Of a stretch of 5,743 nucleotides of DNA, positions 1 through 5,743 are shown in pieces; position 1 is the stretch's first letter; each line of letters starts with the position of its first letter. Source of the stretch: a virus (Duplodnaviria; Heunggongvirae; Uroviricota; Caudoviricetes). The DNA lies in IMG/VR virus record IMGVR_UViG_2740892421_000003. One strand, written 5' to 3'. Under the pieces are notes generated by a model, which did no database searches, was not told the origin of the DNA, and saw only the letters and a list, made by a program, of their open reading frames with translations. Both the position numbers and the translations under genes were made by a program.

Positions 1-2
1 CG

Positions 3-3000
3 TCATCGGCCTCATCGGCGTCTGCTTCAAAAGATGAGGCGACCAGACAAGCGTCAGCAGCGAAGGGCAGCGCCACGACGGCATCCACGAAGGCAACAGA
101 GGCTGCTGGCAGTGCGACGGCGGCATCTCAGAGCAAAACTACTGCTGAATCCGCTGCGACCCGTGCGGAAGCTGCTGCTGATCGTGCTGAAGAGATTGCC
201 GGTGCAGTTGCGATGGAAGACGCAAGCCTTACAACTAAAGGTGTTGTGAAACTTAGCAGTGCTGTTGATAGCACCAGTGAATCGCTGGCCGCAACGCCAA
301 AAGCAGTTAAAGCAGCCAATGACAATGCGAATAGCAGGGTGCCATCTAACCGAAAAGTTAACGGAAAAGCACTGACTGCGGATATAACATTAACGCCGAA
401 AGATATTGGTACTTTAAATTCAGTAACGATGTCTTTCTCTGGCGGGGCTGGGTGGTTCAAACTGGCTACGGTTACCATGCCACAAGCGAGTTCCATCGTT
501 TACATCGCATTGATTGGTGGCGCTGGTTACAACGTCGGTTCCCNNNNNNNNNNCACATTAACGCCGAAAGATATTGGTACTTTAAATTCAGTAACGATGT
601 CTTTCTCTGGCGGGGCAGGGTGGTTCAAACTGGCTACGGTTACCATGCCACAAGCGAGTTCCATCGTTTACATCGCATTGATTGGTGGCGCTGGTTACAA
701 CGTCGGTTCCCCACATCAGGCAGGCATTTCAGAACTGGTTCTACGAGCAGGCAATGGAAACCCCAAAGGAATTACCGGGGCTTTGTGGAAGCGTACAGCC
801 GTCGGATTAACGAATTTCGCCTGGATCAACACATCCGGCGATACATATGATATTTACGTTGAGATTGGCAATTATGCGACGAGTGTAAATATCCATTGGG
901 ATTGTACTGCAAATGCGTCAGTTTCTGTTTATACCTCGCCAACATATTCAGCGAGTAAGCCTTCCAGCGTTACCTATGGTGTTGTTTATACGATGTATAG
1001 CTCACATCAGAAACCTACACCATCAGATATTGGAGCACTGCCAACAACCGGAGGAACAGTTTCAGGTCCGTTGTCTGTTACAGGTGGATTAACTGGTTCA
1101 TTGAATGGTAATGCAAGTACAGCCACGAAATTGCAGACGGCAAGATCTATCGGTGGAGTTGTTTTCGACGGTTCTGCAAATATTAACCTTCCAGGTGTAA
1201 ACACTACGGGTAATCAGAACACCACTGGTAATGCTGCAACTGCTACAAAACTTCAGACTGCAAGAAAAATATCCGGTGTTCCATTTGATGGTTCTACTGA
1301 TATCACTTTAACCGCCGCGCATGTGGCTGCTTTTGCCAGAAGGGCAACGGATACATATGCCGATGCGGATGGTGGCGTTCCCTGGAATGCCGAATCAGGC
1401 GCTTACAATGTCACCCGCTCTGGCGACAGCTATATTCTGGTTAACTTCTATACCGGAGTCGGAAGTTGCCGGACCCTGCAGATGAAGGCGCATTACAGAA
1501 ATGGTGGTCTGTTCTACCGTTCTTCAAGAGACGGTTATGGTTTTGAGGATGACTGGGCAGAAGTTTATACCTCGAAAAATCTTCCACCAGAAAGCTACCC
1601 AGTCGGCGCACCAATCCCGTGGCCATCAGATACCGTTCCGTCTGGCTATGCCCTGATGCAGGGGCAGACTTTTGACAAATCTGCATACCCGAAACTTGCA
1701 GTGGCTTATCCGTCAGGCGTTATTCCTGATATGCGTGGCTGGACGATTAAGGGCAAGCCCGCCAGTGGTCGTGCCGTATTGTCTCAGGAACAGGACGGCA
1801 TTAAATCGCACACCCACAGCGCCAGCGCATCCAGTACGGATTTGGGGACGAAAACCACATCATCGTTTGATTACGGCACTAAATCCACGAATAACACTGG
1901 TGCACATACCCATAGTGTTAGCGGTACGGCTGCTTCAGCCGGTGCACATACCCATTCGATGACATTTGTTTCAGGTGGTTCCAGTGGTGCTCCGGGAANN
2001 NNNNNNNNAGGTGCTTTGTGGAAGCGTACAGCTGTCGGATTAGCGAATTTCGCCTGGATCAACACATCCGGCGATACATATGATATTTACGTTGAAATTG
2101 GCAATTATGCGACGAGTGTAAATATCCATTGGGATTGTACTGCAAATGCGTCAGTTTCTATTTATACATCGCCAACATATTCAGCGAGTAAGCCTTCCAG
2201 CGTTACCTATGGTGTTGTTTATACGATGTATAGCACACATCAGAAACCGACGCCGTTAGATATTGGAGCACTGCCAACAACCGGAGGAACAGTTTCAGGT
2301 CCGTTGTCTGTTACTGGTGGTATCACCGGAACATTAAATGGTAATGCAAGTACAGCAACGAAATTGCAGACGGCAAGATCTATCGGTGGAGTTGGTTTCG
2401 ACGGTTCTGCAAATATCAACCTTCCAGGTGTAAATACTACGGGTAATCAGAACACCACTGGTAATGCCGCAACTGCTACAAAACTACAGACGGCAAGAAC
2501 TATCGGCGGCGTGAGCTTTGATGGTACTGCAAATATTAATTTGCCAGGTGTTAATACGACTGGTAATCAGAATACAACAGGTAATGCGGCTACTGCTACG
2601 AAGTTGCAGACTGCGCGTACTATTAATGGGGTGTCGTTTGACGGTTCTAAAAACATTGAGCTAACTCCAAGGTCTATAGGCACGATCAACTCAGCAACAA
2701 TATCTTTTAGTGGTGGTGCCGGATGGTTCAAGCTGGCAACTGTAACCATGCCACAGGCCAGTTCCGTGGTTTACATAAGCCTGATTGGTGGTGCAGGGTA
2801 TAACGTTGGCTCCCCGCATCAAGCAGGCATCTCTGAGCTGGTTCTGCGTGCCGGAAATGGAAATCCAAAGGGTATTACTGGTGCATTATGGCGACGGACA
2901 TCGGTTGGATTTACTAATTTTGCATGGGTGAATACATCCGGTGATACCTATGATGTTTATGTTGAAATAGGTAATTACGCCACAGGTGTTAATATTCAGT

Positions 3001-5330
3001 GGGATTATACCAGTAACGCCAGCGTAACGATTCATACATCACCAACTTATACAGCGAATAAACCAACTGGTCTTACTGATGGAACGGTATATGTCATTTA
3101 CAGTTCGCACATTAAACCGACCGCCACGGATGTCGGCGCATTACCAATAACCGGAGGAAATCTCAACGGCGGTTTAACGGCTACTGGTGAGATCATTTCA
3201 AAATCGGCGAATGGTCTGCGCATTGCCTACGGAAGCTACGGATTCTTTATCCGAAACGATGGTTCAAACACATATTTCATGTTGACCAATTCGGGTAACA
3301 GCCTGGGAACCTATAATAGTTTAAGGCCGCTTATCATTAACAATGCCAATGGTGCTGTTACGATCGCTAATGGACTCAATGTTACTGGTGGCGTAAATGG
3401 TAGCTTGAATGGCAATGCTTCAACGGCTACGAAGTTGCAAACAGCGAGAAACATCAATGGTGTTAAGTTTGATGGTTCAGGCGATATCAATATTAATACA
3501 TTGGTATCTCGTGGCCGAGTTACGGCGTTAAGCGGCTCTACTCAAGGCACTGCTGGCATTCAAATGTATGAGGCGTACAACAATAGCTACCCGACCATGT
3601 ATGGCAACGTATTGCACATGAAAGGTGCGAGTGCTTCTGGTGAGGGCGAGATGCTTGTTGGCTGGAGCGGAACGGATGGTGCTCATGCACCGGTTTATGT
3701 TCGTTCACGCCGTGATACTTCGACAGCGAATTGGTCTGGTTGGGCGCAGGTCTATACCACTGCTCATAAACCCACAGCGAAAGATGTTGGGGCTGCACAG
3801 ACGTTTAGCGCGTCATACAGTACTGGGGCTGGCAACTGGACTACCGCTGAATTTATCGCATGGCTGAAGGAGCGTGGTGCTTTCGCCGTACCGTATTGGA
3901 TGATGAAAGGCTCTTGGTCATATGCCGACAATAAAATTATCACTGATACAGGTGTCGGCAATATTTGTCTTGCTGGTGCGGTTATCGAGGTTTTAGGTCA
4001 CGAAGGCGCAATGACCATCCGAGTTACTACGCCTACAACGACAACCGGAGGTGGTATTGCCAGTGCTCAGTTCACCTATATTAATCACGGTAGCGCGTAT
4101 GCCCCTGCCTGGCGCAGAGATTACAACACTGCTCTCAAACCCACTGCGGCTGATGTCGGTGCGTTACCGATTTCTGGCGGAACAATGACTGGTGTGCTGA
4201 CGCTGCAAAATGTGAGTCAGCCCCTCAAGACGCAAGGTGGAGGCATTCTGGCAAATGATGGAAATTTATACATTAATAAGTCGGGATTTGCAGGCTGGAT
4301 TGATGCGCTATTTATGAAAAACAGCGGCGGTACGATGTCCGGACAGCTTAAGATCCGCTCTACGGATGGGTTACGCATTTACGATGCGGCATACGGGATG
4401 ATTTTTCGCCGTTCCGAAAATAATTTTTACCTTATCCCGACAGCAAAAGACCAGGGAGAAAATGGTGATATAGGTTCGCTTCGTCCATTTTATGTAGATC
4501 TCACTAATGGCAGAGTAACAATGGGCAATGGTGCTGTTGTTAACGGTGGTCTTGGGCTGGGTGTGGTCAATGGTCTTGGCGGTAATTCCATTGTTCTGGG
4601 TGACAATGACACCGGCTTTAAACAGAACGGAGATGGCATTCTGGATGTTTACGCCAATAGCGCCCATGTTTTTAGGTTCGTTAATAGCACGCTGCAAAGC
4701 CTTAAGCCGTTGAGTGTAACGGGTGACATCACGTCAAGTGCGTGGGTTTACGCCAACCGTTTTTCCATCAACAGCGGCTCTGGCGCGTGGATAGATATGC
4801 GTAACCAGAACGTCATCTTCGGGAGGAACGCTGTAAGTACAAGCTCTGCACAAGCGTTGTTGAGACAAGACCACGCGGATCGCAAATTCTTCTTGGGTGG
4901 CTTGGGAAACAGTCAGTTTGGTTTTTACATGATCAACAACTCACGTACCGCAAACGGCACTGACGCTGCCGCTTATCTCCAGAACGACGGCACTTGGGTT
5001 TGCGCAGGCAACGGTAGTTTTAATGACGTTTACATCCGTTCCGACCGCCGTAGTAAGCGCAATATTCGCAAAATTGAGCGGGCGCTCGACAAGCTGGAGC
5101 AGATCGAAGGTGTTCTCTACGAGATTCAGGTCTGTGGCCGTTATGAGCAGTCTGGCGGCCTCATCGCTCAGGACGTCCAGAATGTTCAGCCTGAACTGGT
5201 AACGGTTGACCATAACGATCAGTCAGGAGAGCCTCGTCTGCGTCTTAACTACAACGGCGTTATCGGCATGTTGGTCGAGGCTGTCAAAGAGCTGCGCGAG
5301 GAAGTGCGCGAACTGAAGGCAAAAATGTAA
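3..5330 (+). CDS. Long (side) tail fibre protein, mosaic, with C-terminal intramolecular chaperone domain; 5'-partial (continues upstream of window); spans two N-run gaps
   Basis: Frame +3 has no stop codon from nt 3 to TAA at 5328-5330 (1775 sense codons in window). Translation upstream of the track's ATG at 213 reads [70 protein letters not shown], a typical fibre shaft, so 213 is an internal Met. Contains the Stf-type motif [25 protein letters not shown], 40-aa tail-fibre repeats, a tail-collar-like block, HTHS motifs, and an S-D-x-x-x-K C-terminal domain. Family call from memory, not a search. Confidence 0.9.
237..311 (+). other. Conserved side-tail-fibre motif ([25 protein letters not shown]), as recalled from lambda Stf and relatives
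   Basis: Direct translation of frame +3. The motif and preceding Ala/Ser/Thr-rich stretch resemble the central region of lambda Stf as I recall it (..[25 protein letters not shown]..). Confidence 0.7.
387..711 (+). repeat. Tandem direct repeat: 157-nt unit (387-543) repeated at 555-711, period 168 nt, copies separated by the 10-N run
   Basis: Both copies encode [52 protein letters not shown]. By manual alignment there is one mismatch (T449 vs A617, GCT vs GCA, synonymous). Confidence 0.85.
544..553. other. Run of 10 N (assembly gap or masked bases) inside the tail fibre ORF
   Basis: Literal nnnnnnnnnn in the sequence; flanked on both sides by the same 157-nt repeat unit. Confidence 0.99.
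778..1265 (+). repeat. Long direct repeat, copy A (~488 nt; partner at 2011-2498, in-frame offset 1233 nt)
   Basis: Manual alignment gives about 28 mismatches in about 488 positions (about 94% identity; needs computational confirmation). Encodes [49 protein letters not shown]...[17 protein letters not shown]...[12 protein letters not shown]. Confidence 0.85.
1101..1320 (+). repeat. Two tandem copies of the ~40-aa phage tail-fibre repeat (120-nt period)
   Basis: [43 protein letters not shown] followed by [27 protein letters not shown]. The GGT-AAT-GCx starts at 1107 and 1227 are exactly 120 nt apart. Confidence 0.8.
1599..1998 (+). other. Tail-collar-like domain followed by three His-x-His (HTHS) motifs; a lambda-Stf-type distal receptor-binding region found here in the middle of the ORF
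   Basis: [133 protein letters not shown]. Matches my recollection of the C-terminal region of lambda Stf and of tail-collar domains (..LPDMRGW..). The block ends exactly at the second N run. Confidence 0.75.
1999..2008. other. Run of 10 N (assembly gap or masked bases) inside the tail fibre ORF
   Basis: Literal N run. Left flank is the end of the HxH block; right flank starts in the middle of the repeated module (GALWKRT...). Confidence 0.99.
2011..2498 (+). repeat. Long direct repeat, copy B (partner of 778-1265)
   Basis: Same manual alignment as copy A. Protein differs at only about 7-8 residues (for example LTNF/LANF, SVSVY/SVSIY, TPSDIG/TPLDIG, GGVVFDG/GGVGFDG). Confidence 0.85.
2334..2680 (+). 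repeat. Three tandem copies of the ~40-aa tail-fibre repeat (120-nt period; units start near 2340, 2460, 2580)
   Basis: ..[40 protein letters not shown] / [40 protein letters not shown] / [27 protein letters not shown]. Nucleotide copies are diverged, mostly at synonymous positions. Confidence 0.85.
2664..3158 (+). repeat. Third, diverged copy of the ~230-aa fibre module (TPRSIG...[18 protein letters not shown]...[10 protein letters not shown]...[16 protein letters not shown]...[17 protein letters not shown])
   Basis: Collinear at protein level with 387-1058. Nucleotide sequence is clearly more diverged than the A/B pair (roughly three quarters identical by eye, not computed). Confidence 0.75.
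3213..4580 (+). other. Distal fibre region with two related units of about 60-70 aa (3213-3400 and 4368-4580; pattern GLRI..Y..G..FR....N.YF..T.....G...SLRP......NG.VT..NG) and small domains each ending in a KPT..D.GA junction
   Basis: [54 protein letters not shown] versus [55 protein letters not shown]. Protein-level similarity only; no nucleotide repeat. Confidence 0.5.
3405..3500 (+). repeat. Sixth, isolated copy of the 40-aa tail-fibre repeat
   Basis: [31 protein letters not shown] in frame +3. Confidence 0.75.
5040..5327 (+). other. C-terminal intramolecular chaperone / autoproteolytic domain (endosialidase-chaperone, peptidase S74-like); predicted cleavage after Ser encoded at 5040-5042, Lys at 5055-5057
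   Basis: Translation ..[102 protein letters not shown]. The S-D-x-x-x-K spacing and the GLIAQDV / LNYNGVIG / terminal helix signature match the self-cleaving C-terminal domains of phage K1F endosialidase and T5 pb1 as I recall them. Confidence 0.8.
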
Positions 5331-5336
5331 TCAAGG

Positions 5337-5366
5337 TGAATGGTGAGGGGCCACCCTCACCATTCA
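5337..5366 (+). terminator. Perfect hairpin (13-bp stem, 4-nt GCCA loop) 6 nt after the fibre stop codon; possible terminator or attenuator lacking a canonical U-tract
   Basis: TGAATGGTGAGGG-GCCA-CCCTCACCATTCA; all 13 positions pair (7 G:C). Downstream sequence is GGATATTCACATC, not a T run. Confidence 0.45.
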
Positions 5367-5382
5367 GGATATTCACATCAAA

Positions 5383-5388
5383 AAGGAG
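5383..5388 (+). promoter_or_regulatory. Shine-Dalgarno sequence (AAGGAG) for the downstream gene
   Basis: AAGGAG sits 7 nt upstream of GTG at 5396 (5 nt upstream of the out-of-frame ATG at 5394). Confidence 0.6.
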
Positions 5389-5395
5389 ATTAGAT

Positions 5396-5743
5396 GTGCC
5401 AATTGTCGGTGTTCCCGGTTGGATTGGGTCTTCGGCTGTCAGTGTGACAGGCCAGAGATGGATGAGTGCGGCTCGAACGGCGGTGCAACTGCCAGCGGCT
5501 GGTTCAATGTCTCAAATGGCCGGGCGATCTAAAGAAGTTCAGTACAGCATCGGTGCGAATCATAACTACAACAAAGACACACTGATCAACTATTTAAAAT
5601 CCCAGGGGGCGACGCCAGTCGTTGTTACCATTACAGGGGATCTGGTGTCGTCCAGTAGCGGCGTGCCATGTTTAGATTTCCCGAGTTCACTTACCAACTC
5701 TTATATCAGCCTTGTAATCAACGCAGGTGTGACTGTCTATGGA
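5396..5743 (+). CDS. Hypothetical phage protein, GTG start, 3'-partial (runs off window); function unknown
   Basis: Frame +2 is open from GTG 5396 to the window end (116 codons, no stop): (M)PIVGVPGWIGSSAVSVTGQRWMSAARTAVQLPAAGSMSQMAGRSKEVQYSIGANHNYNKDTLINYLKSQGATPVVVTITGDLVSSSSGVPCLDFPSSLTNSYISLVINAGVTVYG. The overlapping ATG at 5394 is in another frame and stops after 17 codons. Missing from the ORF track because it has no ATG start and no stop in window. Confidence 0.6.
   Translation, partial: MPIVGVPGWIGSSAVSVTGQRWMSAARTAVQLPAAGSMSQMAGRSKEVQYSIGANHNYNKDTLINYLKSQGATPVVVTITGDLVSSSSGVPCLDFPSSLTNSYISLVINAGVTVYG

Follow-up and report, generated by a model that had tools for sequence, protein, structure and literature searches.

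The window, by which we mean the whole 5,743-nt stretch of DNA analysed, holds a side tail-fibre gene (1..5330) cut at its 5′ end and, after it, a second gene (5396..5743) cut by the window end; the genes and elements described below lie on the + strand. The second gene starts with GTG at 5396-5398. Direct reading of the sequence located a Shine-Dalgarno sequence, AAGGAG, 5′ of this codon at 5384..5389 with a 6-nt spacer, the region around the start reading ...AAAAAGGAGATTAGATGTGCCA... From the GTG, 116 codons run to the window end without a stop, and their translation opens VPIVGVPGWIGSSAVSVTGQRWMSAAR... This is the only frame among the six that is free of stops over 5331-5743, and overlapping genes in other frames or on the other strand were rejected because all other frames are closed over this interval. 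The first in-frame ATG is codon 23, at 5462, so ORF calling restricted to ATG drops 22 N-terminal residues. A GTG-initiated gene with a good ribosome-binding site, missed by ATG-only calling, had been described in an earlier note made from the sequence alone, and its reading of the start was borne out.

Comparison with homologues pointed to the same start. Residues 1-42 of the translation align with positions 1-40 of the Pfam Gp38_N profile, residue 1 falling on profile position 1, and in the alignment the initiator Met of every T-even homologue falls at this position, opening the motif MA(I/V)VGVPGWIGSSAV. NCBI PGAP used the same GTG in plasmids that are 100% identical to the window over 5300-5743. 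These results confirmed that the gene is real and GTG-initiated at 5396, with (M)PIVGVPGWIGSSAV and (M)PIVGVPGWIGSSAVSVTGQR as predicted N-terminal peptides of its product. Translation from a second in-frame GTG upstream, at 5336, would give a 280-aa protein, no stop intervening before 5396, and at least one automated call elsewhere uses this upstream codon (P0004, 280 aa). However, no Shine-Dalgarno sequence lies 5′ of 5336, the codon is inside the stem of a hairpin, and the 20 additional residues (including NGEGPPSPFR) have no counterpart in any homologue, whereas residue 1 of the 5396 product meets both the first Gp38_N position and the initiator Met of T-even gp38s, in agreement with PGAP. 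On these grounds we rejected 5336 as a start and regard its use as extremely improbable.

The hairpin itself (5337..5366) is located between the fibre stop codon and the ribosome-binding site of the second gene, and consists of a perfect 13-bp stem and a 4-nt loop without a U tract. Its predicted RNA folding energy of -29.6 kcal/mol (z -4.4) was equalled by 0 of 200 shuffled sequences. A scan of 5100-5743 for promoters and terminators found none and did not call the hairpin a terminator, and a search of the hairpin region against Rfam gave no match at E ≤ 1.

The earlier note had held that the product could not be assigned from its sequence. This proved too cautious: the 116 residues in the window matched Pfam Gp38_N (PF21721; 1.5e-15, residues 1-42, profile 1-40 of 40), Pfam GP38 (PF05268; 1.8e-26, profile 1-70 of 218) and PHROG 2056, 'tail fiber protein; host specificity' (4.2e-46). 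Two parts of the protein could thus be placed on the window. The Gp38_N attachment domain, a three-helix module with helices at residues 10-18, 23-29 and 38-41 in the structural model described below, occupies 5396..5521. It is followed at 5534..5743 by the start of the GP38 core, residues 47-116, a beta-helix domain delimited by the PF05268 match, by the alignments and by a model pLDDT of 88-97. Adhesins of the gp38 type are single proteins that use a helical attachment domain at their N terminus to cap a trimeric distal fibre, and that display hypervariable loops on a polyglycine-II sandwich (PMC6851490; PMC3157838).

Retrieval of the full gene, which the earlier note had advised, was possible from identical E. 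coli plasmids. In plasmid A of E. coli D9 (NZ_CP010153, locus L001:2130-2912) it comprises 783 nt and encodes 260 aa, with glycine very abundant in the C-terminal half. The 260-aa protein matched GP38 over profile positions 1-217 of 218 (1.4e-69), PHROG 2056 over its full length (3.8e-92) and the receptor-binding domain of PP01 gp38 (PDB 9V85; 1.5e-36). Homology to gp38 of Salmonella phage S16 (PDB 6F45, chain D; Dunne et al. 2018, as cited in PMC6851490) was full-length, covering residues 8-258 with E 1e-46 and ~41% identity. An AlphaFold2 model of P0001, a protein 97% identical to the full allele, was built from a 67-sequence alignment and reached a mean pLDDT of 92.5. Foldseek placed 6f45_D at the top for this model (TM 0.82/0.86), followed by 9v85, and returned no other significant match, confirming the fold. 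The family is well charted, having been studied genetically for decades and solved by crystallography (6F45, 9V85). NCBIfam gave no match for either the 116-aa fragment or the 260-aa protein, though PGAP names the protein. A confident match to a family unrelated to tail fibres would have spoken against the earlier note's reading; the family matched is that of the fibre-tip adhesins, in line with the role of second adhesin or tip protein that the note had suggested among others. The identity of the gene is not new: identical proteins are already correctly named in RefSeq, where D9 plasmid A carries WP_072647505.1, 'receptor-recognizing protein', on a 783-nt gene with the same GTG. A gene formerly listed as of unknown function is thus a textbook fibre-tip adhesin, ordinary in kind and mildly unusual in setting.

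The frame of the upstream fibre gene is already open at the first base of the window (from base 3 by the ORF read), so its start lies upstream of the window. Pfam revealed a mosaic of Gp34_trimer repeats and a C-terminal Peptidase_S74 domain, and in a PDB search segments of the fibre matched both the Mu/P2-type fibre protein S (5yvq, 8ju3) and the S16 gp37 tip (6f45_A). At the nucleotide level the gene is ~89-95% identical to SSU5_021, the fibre gene of Salmonella phage SSU5. It contains two N gaps, at 544-553 and 1999-2008, whose flanks are duplicated. The S74 domain, an intramolecular chaperone (5040..5327; PF13884, 2.7e-11, residues 1011-1065 of the frame at 2010-5327), fits the earlier expectation that the gene accompanies a fibre with its own chaperone. 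It begins at window position 5040 with the Ser of ...NDVYIR|SDRRSK..., which aligns with ...RDLNVSSDRRIKK... of the S16 gp37 construct and would be the expected point of self-cleavage, exposing the tip for gp38. T2-type gp37 proteins are ~50% identical over the tip and the chaperone. An insertion of ~95 Mu-S-like residues separates the gp37-like tip segment of the fibre from the chaperone, and the docking geometry may therefore differ from that of S16. The fibre stop at 5330 and the adhesin start at 5396 place the gp38 gene directly downstream. In gene order and domain content, a chaperone-bearing fibre followed by gp38 is the same design as in T2/S16-type phages, which accounts for the impression that the fibre needs no separate Tfa.

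In the S16 attachment domain the helix apices carry three conserved Trp residues, which insert into three equivalent pockets at the gp37 base (PMC6851490, Fig. 7). Two of these are present in the window's protein (W9 and W22), and the third position is Ser37. Among 67 homologues the third column holds W in 37, Y in 15, F in 1, S in 5, N in 5, A in 2, G in 1 and Q in 1. Non-aromatic residues occur mostly in the phage-plasmid lineage with the motif ...AAG(S/N/A)M... The third Trp varies even in bona fide T-even adhesins, being Tyr in JSE and RB49, and it is retained in SSU5_022, which sits on an almost identical fibre tip.

The window source is probably an SSU5-like phage-plasmid of E. coli, as judged from its matches. 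Over 5300-5743 the window is 100% identical to 5 E. coli plasmids, with those of strains D9, D4 and PEC178 among the identical ones, and at least 99% identical in 28 of the 33 matching records. Each of these 33 E. coli records is a plasmid, of ~106-220 kb and mostly ~110 kb, and none is chromosomal. In PLSDB the gp38 protein was found on 87 plasmids (Enterobacter 40, Escherichia 30, Citrobacter 13, Salmonella 3, Shigella 1), 84 of them non-mobilizable. The flanks in the D9 plasmid are 83-90% identical in nucleotide sequence to the SSU5 fibre, holin-endolysin-spanin and ParA genes. Members of the SSU5 supercommunity are phage-plasmids, for which affiliation with Siphoviridae has been predicted (PMC7969092).

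Comparison of the D9 plasmid locus with the corresponding SSU5 locus (L002) by blastn, together with the SSU5 annotation, delimited a cassette in which the two differ and whose left part lies in the window (5315..5743). Homology to SSU5 ends 16 nt short of the fibre stop codon and picks up again outside the window, 27 nt past the gp38 stop, at the holin gene. Between these shared flanks SSU5 has four genes, SSU5_022-025, whereas the E. coli plasmids have the hairpin and gp38. SSU5_022 ('tail fiber adhesin', 178 aa) occupies the same slot after a near-identical fibre tip and chaperone. It matches Gp38_N (2.5e-20, Pfam) and is 52% identical to the window's protein over residues 1-46, whereas its C-terminal domain is not glycine-rich and is unrelated (4-20% identity). 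The three small genes that follow it, SSU5_023-025, are absent from the plasmids. Since SSU5_022 combines Gp38_N with an unrelated C-terminus, the slot after the fibre gene holds exchangeable adhesins with a common docking domain.

Alignment of the complete gp38 gene with its relatives revealed two halves of different affinity. Relative to gp38 of phage Bas45 (PaulHMueller), nucleotides 1-360 are 58-75% identical and nucleotides 361-720 are 92-100% identical; in the protein, residues 1-116 are 67-73% identical and residues 117-260 are 97% identical. The breakpoint lies at the first glycine-rich motif, GRGGNGG (residues 116-122), just beyond the window end. By coincidence the window thus stops at the Bas45 junction and has only the lineage-specific docking half, the glycine-rich part, in which conserved glycine-rich blocks alternate in the alignments with variable segments, being outside it. 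Enterobacter phage-plasmid alleles (P0024, P0026) showed the converse, with 91-96% identity over residues 1-116 and 44% over the hypervariable region (residues 159-235). JSE gp38 is 63-74% identical over residues 1-116 and 95% identical in the hypervariable region, which is 61% identical to that of T6. FL18 gp38 is 99% identical over residues 159-235, including the rare Cys173 in GGGGGCPFG, and 17-41% identical over the N-terminal 116 residues, the deposited FL18 sequence lacking about the first 22. Both Bas45 and FL18, near-identical to the full plasmid allele in the receptor-binding half and different in the N-terminal 116 residues, are virulent Straboviridae. The hypervariable set shared by D9 and Bas45 reads GGNRGKLIFGGGGGCPFGAGGSSSHMSSGATAGTISAPGKGSVGEGSLSAYTGG... 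The full allele is thus a chimera of a phage-plasmid-specific N-terminal half and a T-even C-terminal half.

The gp38 adhesins of T2, T6, K3 and Ox2 belong to this family, in which hypervariable segments are interspersed with five conserved glycine-rich motifs (PMC3157838), and differ from this case in replicon type. For T-even phages, recombination in the glycine-rich motifs has been proposed as the way in which specificity is swapped (Tetart 1998, as cited in PMC3157838). Chimerism of the kind observed here illustrates how modules for host range pass between virulent and temperate phages, the junction with the OmpA-binding cassette of a virulent phage being sharp. The T2, T6, K3 and Ox2 adhesins are reportedly the subject of studies by Riede et al. 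1987 and Tetart et al. 1998.

The gene's position is the one usually held by Tfa, and in older annotations gp38 appears as a 'distal long tail fiber assembly catalyst'; the fibre, moreover, has a Mu-S-like distal domain (5yvq), which binds the receptor in Mu. The product might accordingly be an assembly chaperone only, of the T4 gp38 or lambda/Mu Tfa type, discarded after folding while the fibre itself binds the receptor. T4 gp38 and the Tfa proteins of lambda, Mu and P2 are indeed encoded at the same position after the fibre gene. However, they are folding helpers, a function that is here built into the fibre as its S74 domain, and no sequence relationship to them was detected. T4 gp38 is not found in the virion (PMC6851490), whereas the window's protein has full-length homology and fold identity to virion-tip adhesins (6F45). 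Searches of Pfam and PHROGs returned gp38 and tail-fibre families only, and no chaperone family of the Tfa or T4 gp38 type, as the earlier note had surmised from the lack of resemblance to Tfa-type chaperones. That variation is focused in the hypervariable segments while the docking domain is conserved is what characterizes a receptor binder. Tfa or T4 gp38 identity was rejected for want of homology, and we give practically no credence to a purely chaperone role. The adhesin gene might also be a decaying remnant on a defective phage-plasmid, from which no functional adhesin is made. Some SSU5-like elements are non-inducible, as in E. coli 166F4 (PMC9600943), frameshifted or partial copies of the gene occur (P0020, P0023, P0066, P0100), and there are N gaps and duplicated segments in the window's fibre. 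Against this, dozens of plasmids from four genera conserve an intact frame of 260 codons, the Shine-Dalgarno sequence and the start are intact, allelic diversity is concentrated in the receptor loops, and induction and packaging were observed for four SSU5-like elements of E. cloacae (PMC9600943). Decay is therefore very unlikely.

As to the receptor of such an adhesin, Bas45 (PaulHMueller) targets OmpA, as confirmed by complementation (PMC8594841, supporting figures), and FL18, of the narrow-host-range 'type 2' group, is OmpA-dependent (PMC12032242). Because the receptor-binding half of the full allele is near-identical to those of these two phages, OmpA is the predicted receptor, a prediction that rests on sequence outside the window. 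Identity of the hypervariable segments predicts the receptor well, if not absolutely; changes of a few residues alter gp38 specificity (Trojet et al., in PMC3157838). The window's allele could carry other loops and bind Tsx, OmpF, OmpC, FadL or LPS instead of OmpA. The hypervariable segments lie beyond the window, and near-identical N-terminal halves are paired with other loop sets in P0028 (residues 1-122 identical, hypervariable segments different) and P0004 (same N-terminal half, T6-like hypervariable set). Among the 33 E. coli plasmids, ~8 differ in the 3′ half, this half being ~82% identical in 2 and the hypervariable region unrelated in ~6. Yet all five plasmids identical to the window over 5300-5743 have the D9 3′ half at 100%, and it is at least 96% identical in 25 of the 33, which makes another receptor unlikely. 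Taken together, the evidence argues with high confidence for a T2/T6/S16-type gp38 adhesin capping a trimeric fibre tip on an SSU5-like phage-plasmid, with OmpA as its predicted target.

SSU5-like phage-plasmids are frequent carriers of resistance genes. The OmpA prediction offers a testable receptor for elements known to move resistance genes. Recent literature treats gp38 as a Straboviridae (T-even) protein (PMC12032242); here gp38 is encoded, together with its chaperone-bearing fibre tip, on SSU5-like phage-plasmids. In the literature on SSU5 and phage-plasmids we found no description of a gp38 adhesin or of its exchange with T-even phages. The chimeric allele raises the possibility, which we consider evenly balanced, that temperate, siphovirus-type SSU5-like phage-plasmids and virulent T-even myoviruses share one pool of gp38 cassettes and that this allele is a recent recombinant, in which a docking half that has lost the third Trp was joined to an OmpA-binding half 92-100% identical in nucleotide sequence to that of a virulent T-even phage. 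If so, a T-even phage infecting a lysogen could give a phage-plasmid a new host range, or the change could go the other way.

By analogy with characterized members of the family, the upstream fibre would trimerise with the aid of its own C-terminal S74 chaperone, which would then cut itself off before the Ser of ...VYIR|SDRRSK... One gp38 would dock on the exposed fibre tip through the N-terminal three-helix attachment domain encoded in the window, and would thereby be present in the virion. Its beta-helix domain, partly encoded in the window, would bear the polyglycine-II sandwich encoded beyond it, and the hypervariable loops of this sandwich would bind an outer-membrane protein. In the allele of every plasmid identical to the window, the receptor-binding half was gained by recombination with T-even phages at the first glycine-rich motif. 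That a single gp38 caps the trimer, and that its loops bind the receptor, is what the family predicts.

The closest structural counterpart to this arrangement is that of S16, a virulent T4-like myovirus whose gp38 targets OmpC. Its adhesin and the present protein have in common the N-terminal helical attachment domain, the beta-helix and the polyglycine-II sandwich, and in S16 likewise the gene directly upstream of gp38 encodes a fibre that combines a gp37-type tip with a C-terminal S74 chaperone. The present case differs from S16 in its temperate SSU5-like phage-plasmid setting, in Ser37 in place of the third Trp, and in the Mu-S-like insertion before the chaperone.

The gp38 protein matched 758 records of the phage collection, and among the matches listed all but two were T-even-sized (140-180 kb); the two others were phage-plasmid CMS-2020a and an 86-kb Hafnia phage. 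A scan of genome contigs was swamped by the polyglycine pattern and returned two loci. A related gp38 copy was also observed in at least one chromosomal prophage.

Comparison of the E. coli D9 plasmid A locus (NZ_CP010153), which matches window 5300-5743 and holds the complete adhesin gene, with that of Salmonella phage SSU5 revealed a clean cassette replacement (positions 2049-2938 of the D9 locus versus 6211-7978 of the SSU5 locus). The flanks of the replaced cassette are 83-90% identical between the two. At this site the E. coli plasmids carry a hairpin and the gp38-type adhesin gene, whereas SSU5 carries four genes, encoding SSU5_022, two small membrane proteins and a Cor-like lipoprotein. 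SSU5_022, the SSU5 adhesin in the equivalent slot, joins a Gp38_N docking domain to a C-terminus of an unrelated kind.

The hairpin (window 5337-5366) follows the stop codon of the fibre gene and precedes the ribosome-binding site of the adhesin gene; it belongs to the cassette missing from SSU5. It consists of a perfect 13-bp stem and a 4-nt loop (GAATGGTGAGGGG stem arm, CCAC loop, CCCTCACCATTC stem arm), with a fold energy of -29.6 kcal/mol (z -4.4), and a spurious upstream GTG falls inside it. The structure lacks a U tract and was not called as a terminator, and Rfam returned no match for it. It could be an attenuator, an RNA stabiliser or a recombination scar.

Two residues of the adhesin are variant. 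Codon 37 (window 5504-5506) encodes Ser at the position where S16 gp38 has the third of its three docking Trp; this column holds Asn or Ala in related phage-plasmid alleles and Tyr in Krischvirus gp38. Codon 173 of the full gene (2646-2648 of the D9 locus, beyond the window) encodes a rare Cys within GGGGG(R)PFG, one of the glycine-rich motifs. Arg is nearly invariant in this column, and among the aligned sequences Cys is otherwise found only in the OmpA-dependent phage FL18.

The fibre gene upstream (window 1-5330) is itself a patchwork of modules known from unrelated phages: T4 Gp34_trimer repeats, segments of the Mu/P2 fibre protein S (5yvq, 8ju3), an S16/T2 gp37 tip and an S74 chaperone. 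A Mu-S-like insertion of ∼95 residues separates the gp37-like tip segment from the chaperone. The gene has two gaps, each of exactly 10 N (544-553 and 1999-2008), and the sequence beside each is duplicated: 387-543 and 555-711, at 99% identity, for the former, and 777-1266 and 2010-2499, at 95% identity, for the latter. Scaffolding has probably joined repeated or alternative fibre segments into the listed 1705-codon ORF (213-5330); the D9 plasmid fibre gene is 3972 nt long.

Homologues of gp38 were also detected in other settings. The E. coli TO6 chromosome (NZ_LS992166) contains a prophage in which a gp38 homologue with 86% nucleotide identity in its 3′ half follows a tail-fibre gene, with capsid genes to one side and tail-tube genes to the other (4983-9342 of the extracted locus). 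Several database homologues (P0015, P0017) are carried by contigs of 280-390 kb. Adhesins of the gp38 type thus extend beyond T-even phages and phage-plasmids. A gp38-like N-terminal half, 48% identical over residues 1-146, was found in a Flagellimonas marina flavobacterial assembly (NZ_JBHSCL010000010, 6001-6465 of the extracted locus); the 178-kb size of its contig suggests a T4-like phage genome, contaminating or infecting.

Separately, a GNAT acetyltransferase and a DUF1778 protein are paired 3′ of the D9 plasmid lysis genes (4438-5236 of the D9 locus), an arrangement typical of toxin-antitoxin pairs.
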